Shown: positions 5,966 to 7,359, numbered from the stretch's first letter. The stretch: DNA of 8,186 nucleotides from a virus (IMGVR_UViG_2537561932_000001); one strand, 5' to 3'. Notes: generated by a model from the sequence alone, not told the origin. Numbers and translations: made by a program.

Positions 5966-7162
5966 TTAAAATGGAACTGAACGATTATAGAATTTACCTG
6001 CAATTACCTGCCGATAAACATCCGGTATTGAAAATCTAATCTTCTCATCCTGTATATCCTCATGTCTGACAATAGCAGTAAAGACCGCCTCGTAATCATT
6101 ACCGAGAAGATGAAATAGCTTTGCAACAGATTTAGAGCACTGCTTACGTAACCAGTGAACATTATGTTCCAGTGCATTAATTGCCTTTTTTTCGTCCGCT
6201 AAATCAGGACGATAAGGATTAAACTTGCGTGGTTTAGCTGGATTGATTTGTGCTGCATAATCACACAATCCCGTAAAATAACCGGCAATATCAAGCAGTA
6301 CATCAACAGGAACCCCTTTAAGCTCGACCTCAGAACGATTCCACGTACCACTGACTTTTTGTTCAAGCGCTTTATTATAGATACGCCAGTAAACACGCGA
6401 TTGCCGGGAACCAAACGTGTACATCTCCTGCTTTAATACTGCGCGACCATCCCATTTACAGGAGTTCGAAAAACCCGGACGCGGTCCCTTACCACTATAA
6501 AACGCGCCAGAGCGATGATCGCGAACAGCAGCGTCACACGTAAAAACACCATCGAAATCATCAACAGCCAAATCAATACGCTTAAGTGTCGTAATATTGA
6601 GATGTTTCAACCATTTGAATACATCCTGAGGCTCAGTGCCACTAAATACATGAGCACATCCCAGACCGGAAATCTGTATATATACCGTGTTATTGTTTCC
6701 ACCCCAGAACACAAAGCCATGTAAATTATTACCGCCATCGTCAGAAAATAATGGCGCAGAACAGCGATAATTAAAGCCACCACGATCCCGCTCCGGTCCC
6801 ATACTCAAACCAAAAGCACTGGATAACCAGATTTTAAGACGATGCAAATACGCAGCCTGAACAGCCTGATTATATTGTTCAATATGCTGTTCAATAAACG
6901 CTCTATCACCAGAAATGCCGCTACAAATTTTATCTGACTCCGCATCATCAGGAACCCAGCATCGAGTCTCAGGATCAACCACATCACGAAAGAAGGCATC
7001 ACGACCGGGCAGAAAATCACGCAGACGCGGCATGGAACCATACTTACGCCAGAACTGAATAGCGCCGTCGAAAGTCTCAAGATTCTTCAGCTCACTCATG
7101 GGGAAAGTGAATGCAAGATGGTCTATGAAGACGTGACGTATGGTTTCCTGAACCGGCTTCAT
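5966..7162 (-). CDS. Rolling-circle replication initiation protein (gene II position), 398 aa
   Basis: First and largest gene of the operon. Start at ATG 7162 preceded by AGGAGA about 10 nt upstream and overlapping the upstream ORF stop (TAATG). Tyr-rich segment [17 protein letters not shown] is a candidate catalytic motif. Family assignment is unverified. Confidence 0.7.
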
Positions 7163-7359
7163 TAGCAAACAGTCTCCTGATAACCGACCCATGAACCAGA
7201 AGGCAGTGCAACAGATACCAGAACGAAGTCATCCCCGATTGTTTCTAAGCATGCAATGACCAGCTCATTAAACGAGCTGAAAAAATCCCATTCACCATCA
7301 ATGCAGGCATTAACGCCATAATCAGGAATGTAATCGTAGTAAACAATCTCGTGAGACAT
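7162..7359 (-). CDS. Hypothetical small acidic protein, 65 aa, translationally coupled to Rep
   Basis: [68 protein letters not shown]. Its stop overlaps the Rep ATG (TAATG). Only a weak RBS (GGTG). Lies directly downstream of the predicted Rep promoter. Confidence 0.45.

Follow-up and report, generated by a model that had tools for sequence, protein, structure and literature searches.

Filamentous phages of the VGJphi, fs1 and f237 type mobilise cholera toxin genes and mark pandemic clones of Vibrio parahaemolyticus, and the replication module of such phages is usually described as a Rep protein plus a single-stranded DNA (ssDNA)-binding protein. In CTXphi, RstA is the only phage-encoded replication protein needed, and host HU and UvrD are needed for the replication of both CTXphi and VGJphi (PMC4439123). 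In this study, we analysed an inovirus (filamentous phage) prophage carried on an 8,186-nucleotide stretch of DNA (IMGVR_UViG_2537561932_000001), called here the window, which is 100% identical to a chromosomal segment in enterotoxigenic E. coli (ETEC) E24377A and in several other E. coli genomes. The morphogenesis and replication genes of this 8.2-kb element all lie on the minus strand, and an open reading frame (ORF) for a small acidic protein of 65 amino acids (aa) ends on the start codon of the replication initiator gene, rep. Comparison of related loci indicates that this small ORF is a genuine protein-coding gene, and that it is inherited with Rep, not with the immunity regulator. It is a member of a family already catalogued as two PHROGs without an assigned function, and is itself annotated as a hypothetical protein. 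The features of the locus that bear on these points are as follows.

5966-7162, minus strand: Rep, rolling-circle initiator of the Rep_trans family, 398 aa (Pfam PF02486, E 1.5e-21; phrog_453, E 2.6e-109)
7162-7359, minus strand: 65-aa acidic ORF (WP_000017777.1, hypothetical protein, in the NCBI Prokaryotic Genome Annotation Pipeline, PGAP; phrog_3104/phrog_2419, or VGJphi ORF67-like, family)
7174-7178, minus strand: AGGAG, candidate Shine-Dalgarno (SD) sequence for Rep, within the Gln-Glu codons of the ORF and 11 nucleotides (nt) from the Rep ATG
7382-7390 and 7425-7433: two identical copies, 43 nt apart, of the palindrome CGCATGCGC, found by repeat search and bracketing the -35 and -10 hexamers
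7393-7422, minus strand: sigma70-like promoter TTTACA-18 nt-TATGAT (10/12 matches in a consensus scan; a consensus match only)
7494-7709, plus strand: divergent basic regulator, 70/71 aa (phrog_2503, E 1.5e-27; pI 9.6)

The ORF runs from an ATG at 7359-7357 to a TAA at 7164-7162 (65 codons), and the last base of this TAA (7162) is the first base of the Rep ATG (7162-7160). The overlap of stop and start described previously is thereby confirmed as a TAATG junction at 7160-7164 (minus strand; context ...TGC TAA TG AAG...). The ORF is read in a frame different from that of Rep and forms a separate upstream cistron. Both boundaries agree with those given by PGAP in the identical RefSeq record, and the 398-aa Rep start is the one chosen by PGAP in the identical E24377A record; a 408-aa Rep ORF from 7192, present in a mechanical ORF list, is an extension upstream of this start. 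The ORF's own SD is weak (GGTG, 5 nt 5' of the ATG). Its product contains 11 Asp/Glu and no Lys/Arg, with a net charge of about -11 at pH 7. It also contains 11 aromatic residues, and with a grand average of hydropathy of +0.39 it cannot, taken as a whole, be called hydrophilic. FVLVSVAL, its longest hydrophobic run, is predicted to form a beta-strand and falls short of the length needed to span a membrane; the absence of a hydrophobic segment claimed in the preliminary description thus holds if a transmembrane segment is meant.

All relatives examined in this comparison keep the frame open, including L002 (63 aa), a prophage with a different immunity region, L003 (65 aa), a 77%-identical prophage in which the ORF is not annotated, the metagenomic relatives L017-L020, and the distant relatives L014-L016. 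Frameshifts or stops in related prophages, which the preliminary description had named as grounds for doubting the protein, were seen in none of them. Nei-Gojobori dN/dS values of 0.06-0.24 (dS 0.4-2.8; pairs at 68-86% protein identity), summarised as about 0.1-0.25 at dS 0.5-1.4, point clearly to purifying selection on the amino-acid sequence, and all 65 residues of the ORF align with the phrog_3104 profile (E 3.5e-25; residues 1-65 to positions 1-69 of 69). The gene for a small acidic protein proposed from the window alone is therefore borne out by the intact frame, the selection seen in relatives and the full-length profile match. Structure prediction, which had been suggested as a check, gives a confident beta-beta-beta-alpha-beta core: AlphaFold2 returned a mean predicted local distance difference test score (pLDDT) of 81 with an alignment of 8 sequences and 83.5 with one of 71 sequences, and with the deeper alignment all five models reached a pLDDT of at least 80. 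The predicted elements are strands at residues 4-11, 15-20 and 23-27, a helix at 30-40 and a strand at 45-49. The last 15 residues are of low confidence, and the C-terminal tail is predicted to be flexible.

The family was delimited in two ways. Single-sequence and exhaustive profile searches of 1.84 billion representatives gave 7 close and 3 distant matches to the ORF; the distant homologues (P0008-P0010) each overlap a Rep_trans gene, and P0002-P0005 are found in the same context. A second survey, seeded with Rep, covered 56 IMG/VR loci with a Rep_trans initiator at Rep identities from 100% down to about 32%. The best match to the family hidden Markov model is the ORF directly upstream of Rep at 49 of these 56 loci, and at each of these 49 family-positive loci there is an overlap of 1-17 nt between the small ORF and the likeliest start of Rep. 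The 1-nt overlap of the window recurs as TAATG or TGATG in L002, L003 and L017-L020.

Three sequence subgroups can be recognised among the small ORFs. Subgroup A comprises the window-like ORFs of E. coli and other enterobacteria; subgroup B carries the motif IYYDLLPDYTVSVLVKG..EWDLFKS..LVSITNTTYQER..LGVFDDY, and subgroup C the motif MDSIYFDNEP..GINVYFPWGH.FFKNQAEF..LVEITDENY..LLLKGVFHAI. Profile comparison with hhalign supports their homology (A and B, 96.8% probability, E 2.9e-10; A and C, 94.3%, E 1e-7; B and C, 95.1%, E 3e-8), and PHROG cross-matches agree, with subgroup B matching phrog_3104 at 1.9e-40 and subgroup C matching phrog_2419 at 4e-36 as well as phrog_3104. Identity between subgroups is only 22-40%, yet the residues Y7, D9, L47 and Y60 hardly vary, and net charge ranges from -4 to -11, except in one ORF call that is over-extended N-terminally. 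A merged profile retrieved 116 clusters from Vibrio, Aliivibrio and Photobacterium in addition to the E. coli branch, and every one is a hypothetical protein of 50-115 aa that stands alone.

By tblastn, subgroup C is present in fs1, ND1-fs1, VGJphi (ORF67), VEJphi, VSK (orf59) and VP24-2_Ke, and in many Vibrio cyclitrophicus elements, and subgroup B, often unannotated, in Vf33, Vf12, VfO3K6 (f237-type), VfO4K68, VALGphi6/8 and vB_Vipa phages. These homologues in named phages surfaced only through the derived subgroup B and C sequences; megablast of the region and tblastn with the E. coli protein found no match in the phage collection. Likewise, a pattern scan of genome contigs (one genome per species, based on the first alignment) yielded no confirmed relatives, and the representative E. 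coli genome in that scan presumably lacks the prophage. Thus, the statement in the preliminary description that the ORF has no counterpart in the canonical Ff gene set holds for Ff but is incomplete, as homologues occur in many other inoviruses (VGJphi ORF67, fs1, VEJ, VSK, Vf33, f237). CTXphi-type phages are without the small ORF. Outside Vibrionaceae and E. coli, the circular 10.2-kb Citrobacter pB72D (L086, NZ_CP069805.1) has the same arrangement with a 10-nt ORF/Rep overlap. It was deposited as a plasmid and contains a full inovirus set (Rep_trans, DUF2523, Zot and secretin) and, in addition, an ISKpn21 insertion; most likely, this record represents a filamentous phage in its replicative form, that is, an episomal inovirus.

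Several records of the family are probably annotation errors. The small ORF is unannotated at 8028-8240 of VfO3K6 (L079) and at 7209-7421 of both Vf33 and Vf12, where the annotated start of Rep (vpf402) spans it. The corresponding VSK gene (orf59, 1052-1240) is labelled a 'membrane glycoprotein precursor', a label that nothing in our analysis backs. Gene tables of f237-type phages omit the small ORF. We also considered that the ORF might be a detached N-terminal domain of longer Rep proteins, as phrog_453 has about 110 extra N-terminal profile positions. This idea was rejected because none of the 116 clusters is fused to Rep and the ORF has no phrog_453 match, and because CTXphi RstA and VGJphi Rep are both 359 aa long, though only VGJphi has the ORF.

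In its inheritance the ORF follows Rep. ORF identity correlates with Rep identity (Spearman 0.80), and regulator identity is not tracked. Between the window and L002, the ORF is 92% and Rep 98% identical, with the regulator at 38%; between the window and L019, both ORF and Rep are 77% identical, with the regulator at 100%. Furthermore, similarity to hybrid prophages breaks within the first few codons of the ORF, which places the boundary of the immunity module at the 5' end of the ORF, and the ORF itself in the Rep module. The regulator gene of the window shares about 70% of its nucleotides with the rstR genes of pre-CTX, VAI1 and VAI2, which are short variants from CTXphi-like phages. Regulators of this phrog_2503 type accompany subgroup A only, subgroups B and C having unrelated regulators, and they also occur without the small ORF in CTXphi-type loci and in L004. 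A fixed pairing of the ORF with the phrog_2503 regulator was rejected on both counts.

The predicted sigma70-like promoter lies about 35 nt upstream of the ORF and would read into the ORF and then Rep, so that the ORF is presumably the first cistron of a repressor-controlled replication operon, the promoter and operator roles being consensus-based. The palindrome/promoter region is conserved in L004, L011 and L019, all of which have the same regulator as the window, and the CGCATGCGC palindromes are likely operators of this divergent 70-aa regulator. At the other end of the ORF, SD-like AGGAG, GGGAG or GGGGG sequences occur within the last codons of the small ORF in all subgroups (49 loci). 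Because the ribosome-binding site of Rep is embedded there, conservation of the C-terminal 'YQE' and 'GVF' may in part be a nucleotide-level constraint. The geometry of the junction makes translational coupling of ORF and Rep plausible, and the conserved overlap together with the upstream promoter lends support to the earlier suggestion of co-translation at the head of the operon. When the RNA around the junction is folded, the Rep AUG is taken up in a local hairpin in L017-L020, the TGATG variants (probability of being unpaired 0.00-0.12), and the TAATG junction of the window forms a weak hairpin (0.34); compared with shuffled controls, junction structures showed no extra stability in most members, the window included.

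A lineage in which the initiator itself has changed provides a further view of the ORF. In some E. coli prophages, an initiator of the unrelated Phage_GPA family (PF05840) accompanies a regulator and operator region identical to that of the window; such loci are found at L004 2981-5353 (in tandem prophage copies), L011 1718-4315 and L081 447-3044, and they clearly exemplify replication-module swapping between E. coli inoviruses. Upstream of the Phage_GPA Rep, L011-L013 and L081-L083 encode a homologue of 81-84 aa at about 50% identity, which is lengthened by 8 inserted residues and a C-terminal extension. In L004 the small ORF has been cleanly deleted, leaving the ATG and two codons fused in frame to its last few codons and Rep. 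In L084/L085, from two E. coli assemblies, it is interrupted after codon 35; the interruption (~3605-3733) consists of tandem repeats of about 19 nt (ATCGATCAYGGTTTGGCAT) that reach the contig end. The ratio of nonsynonymous to synonymous changes (N:S) in this lineage is 4:1 for the ORF versus 19:76 for the adjacent Rep (Fisher p = 0.0095), and close pairs in the Rep_trans context give roughly 1:1 to 1:2 for the ORF. Relaxed constraint, disruption and deletion form the pattern expected if the function of the protein depends on Rep_trans, albeit with small numbers. The pattern could also be read as that of an optional protein with a host factor as its target.

Taken together, we put at close to an even chance the proposal that the ORF product, translationally coupled to Rep, serves rolling-circle replication by Rep_trans as an accessory or modulator, acting with or on Rep. 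In this proposal, ribosomes that finish the ORF would re-initiate on Rep, so that both proteins would be made together, and the acidic protein would act in the replication step performed by Rep_trans, most likely as a partner or modulator of Rep that might, for example, control its activity, specificity or dosage at the origin. An anti-repressor role would be less likely than such a Rep-linked one. The small protein is helpful rather than universally required, since CTXphi-type phages lack it and it decays where Rep_trans has been replaced. It also follows from the sufficiency of RstA in CTXphi and from the shared need for HU and UvrD that the small protein neither confers dependence on these host factors nor is essential to all Rep_trans initiators.

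Several points weigh against this proposal. CTXphi RstA, also a Rep_trans protein, works without such a protein (PMC4439123). Physical linkage alone could give the correlation between ORF and Rep identities. An intact homologue persists beside the unrelated Rep in several E. coli genomes, and the argument from relaxed constraint there rests on only 5 substitutions. As for the coupling, Rep has a good SD of its own, so that coupling may not be obligatory, and obligatory coupling through RNA structure is unsupported for the window, with no significant structure sequestering the Rep start. Nor did similarity searches name a function: Pfam, NCBIfam, PADLOC and PDB sequence searches with the ORF gave no match, Foldseek of the predicted structure against PDB and BFVD gave nothing at E < 1e-3, and Pfam scans of the Vibrio homologues gave only noise. 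The literature searched, with the original VGJphi description lying outside it, contained no function for ORF67 or its relatives and no mention of VGJ ORF67 or ORF359.

A bolder form of the proposal, which we regard as conceivable but doubtful, is that the family is an unrecognised, near-universal second component of Rep_trans replication in non-CTX inoviruses (VGJphi, fs1, f237, VALG and the E. coli and Citrobacter phages). The protein would then be an acidic, possibly DNA-mimicking partner present in a fixed ratio with Rep that gates nicking or re-initiation at the origin, and it would correspond to Ff protein X in function while having arisen independently. The 'replication modules' published for non-CTX inoviruses would in that case be two-protein systems, and the RstA-alone replication of CTXphi would be a derived exception.

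The same charge could instead be directed at the host. An early, possibly DNA-mimicking protein might neutralise a host DNA-binding protein or defence that hinders replication of the replicative form or of ssDNA, with a nucleoid protein, a nuclease, a restriction enzyme or uracil-DNA glycosylase as candidate targets. A net charge of -5 to -11 with 0-4 Lys/Arg is conserved family-wide, the ORF is the first cistron after the predicted early promoter, and the intact homologue beside an unrelated Rep family is what a host-factor target would lead one to expect; the reliance of VGJphi and CTXphi replication on host HU and UvrD (PMC4439123) fits as well. Genes for anti-defence and host takeover, however, are usually variable accessory cargo, whereas the small ORF belongs to the syntenic core and evolves about as fast as Rep, down to Rep identities of about 33%. 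It is also apparently decaying in the Phage_GPA context, and its product has no structural similarity to known DNA mimics or inhibitors and no match to a PADLOC or anti-defence family. We consider a host-directed role unlikely. Of the three candidate roles named in the preliminary description, the results favour the Rep modulator, as a replication-linked role, disfavour a cognate anti-repressor, and leave the host-factor mimic as a less likely possibility.

It is improbable that the ORF is a purely cis-acting leader, in which only translation matters, by delivering ribosomes to the Rep start or by opening it, and the peptide has no function. The stop/start overlap and the Rep SD inside the ORF are universal in the family, and the hairpin at the Rep AUG of the TGATG variants would suit such a device, but the excess of synonymous change shows purifying selection on the amino-acid sequence, the 71-sequence alignment yields a confident fold, and four residues are nearly invariant across the subgroups. 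In addition, the 65-aa length is conserved although 20-30 codons would do for coupling, and in most members, as in the window, the junction structures are no stabler than shuffled controls.

An anti-repressor with positive feedback, in which the acidic protein would bind the basic 70-aa regulator and lock the productive state as RstC does with RstR, is distinctly improbable. Such a role would agree with an ORF divergent from the repressor gene and encoding the first product of the repressed promoter, with the opposite charges of the two proteins, and with the conserved C-terminal half that the short regulators of subgroup A share as a possible common target. Against it, the ORF stays 92% identical where regulators are 38% identical and falls to 77% where they are 100% identical, the recombination breakpoints at its 5' end assign it to the Rep module, it is paired with unrelated regulators in Vibrio subgroups B and C, and phrog_2503 regulators occur without it in CTX-type loci and L004. 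No homology to RstC was detected (hhalign probability 2%). A cognate anti-repressor is thus disfavoured by the lack of covariation with the regulator, the unrelated regulators and the absence of kinship with RstC. Finally, that the ORF is a functionless chance frame in a leader region, for which its weak SD could be cited, is hardly credible and is effectively refuted by the comparative data on conservation, selection, fold and family.

The remainder of the prophage is organised as follows.

812-2032, minus strand: secretin
2042-3298, minus strand: Zot/pI
3306-3665, minus strand: pVI-like gene
3668-4996, minus strand: pIII-like gene (442 aa)
between the pIII-like gene and the 113-aa gene, minus strand: small coat genes
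5621-5962, minus strand: 113-aa gene
8012-8185, plus strand: 57-aa predicted single-pass membrane protein (PGAP call), past the regulator and near the prophage end

At the left edge of the window lies an E. coli dif site matching at 27 of 28 positions (one mismatch; window 1-13, L001 3087-3114, the window coordinate being the L001 coordinate minus 3101), and the insertion point is flanked by the ydeS fimbrial cluster and hipBA. From the position of this dif site, the element is a dif-integrated prophage, and by analogy with CUS-1, YpfPhi and VGJphi its integration presumably depends on XerCD. The sequence from dif to the secretin gene is GC-rich, and 616-720 (plus strand) within it matches the Rfam family isrA below threshold (20.4 bits, the gathering score being 51; E 0.5), most likely by chance. 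The pIII-like protein has an N-terminal Phage_Coat_A domain followed by long linkers rich in Gly/Asn/Asp/Ser, and an entire PHROG (17820) is identical to it, which suggests a very narrow host-range lineage. Downstream of the regulator, the non-coding stretch 7710-7830 contains two hairpins, GGAAAC-CCTTGA-GTTTCC at 7768-7785 and a terminator-like CCCCCGT...ACGGGGG followed by TTTTT at 7796-7822. This stretch is kept in L002 despite only 38% regulator identity, and a terminator together with a packaging signal or origin could be located in it. In L011 (1499-1654) and L004 (5626-5796), small hydrophobic ORFs are found where the window has the 57-aa membrane protein, and this protein could be an exclusion or accessory protein.

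In kind, the small ORF is ordinary, yet it is an overlooked and easily testable part of the replication module in medically relevant filamentous phages. New here are the joining of the E. coli branch to the fs1/VGJ and Vf33/f237 branches in one family, the finding that the small ORF overlaps the Rep_trans gene almost universally, and its assignment to the Rep module instead of the immunity module together with its decay in the Rep-replacement lineage. A third small gene, often unannotated or mis-annotated (Vf33, VfO3K6 and VSK), is thus conserved at the head of the replication module across Enterobacteriaceae and Vibrionaceae and in its evolution behaves as a member of the Rep unit; enterotoxigenic E. 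coli carry related prophages at dif. If its product does modulate Rep, it would offer a handle on copy number and phage production; if the ORF is dispensable, the finding would be an annotation improvement only. The R6K-VGJ replicon assay (PMC4439123) is an existing system in which the ORF can be tested.

Among known systems, the nearest relatives are the Vibrio homologues themselves (VGJphi ORF67, fs1, VEJphi and VSK on the one hand, Vf33, f237 and VALG on the other). Like the window ORF, they encode acidic proteins of about 65-72 aa directly upstream of a Rep_trans gene, overlapping or abutting it; they differ in having only 22-40% identity to the E. coli branch and unrelated regulators, and, being all without an assigned function, they convey membership rather than mechanism. 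Other likenesses are looser. A strong negative charge is common to the ORF product and to DNA mimics such as Ocr, ArdA, Ugi and p56, but this feature is necessary and non-specific, and no sequence or structural similarity of the product to a known DNA mimic or anti-restriction protein was found. HicB-like and half-RNase-H small domains (PDB 3k6q and 1wv8) have the beta-beta-beta-alpha-beta topology, with scores at a generic level and 10-14% identity; a HicB-like antitoxin was rejected, there being no adjacent toxin partner and no sequence signal.

The tap and repY leaders of IncFII/IncI/IncB plasmids, which have about 24-30 codons, a peptide sequence thought to be unimportant, and antisense RNA control, resemble the ORF in that their stop codon abuts or overlaps the start of rep and the leader contains the ribosome-binding site of rep. 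The window ORF differs from them in its 65 codons, purifying selection and predicted fold. RstC, the antirepressor of the RS1 satellite of CTXphi, is likewise a small (74 aa) acidic protein of a filamentous phage and acts on the rstR/rstA switch, but it is encoded downstream of rstB, not upstream of rstA, and the ORF was rejected as its homologue on the hhalign comparison given above. Protein X of the Ff phages (M13/f1/fd) is a small replication modulator made by an in-frame internal restart of gene II and shares the C-terminal sequence of pII. The window ORF differs from it in being a separate upstream cistron in another frame, and in accompanying a Rep_trans initiator, not Ff pII. As a small protein of the replication module that is made with the initiator, protein X nevertheless appears to be the closest functional analogy for the role proposed here.

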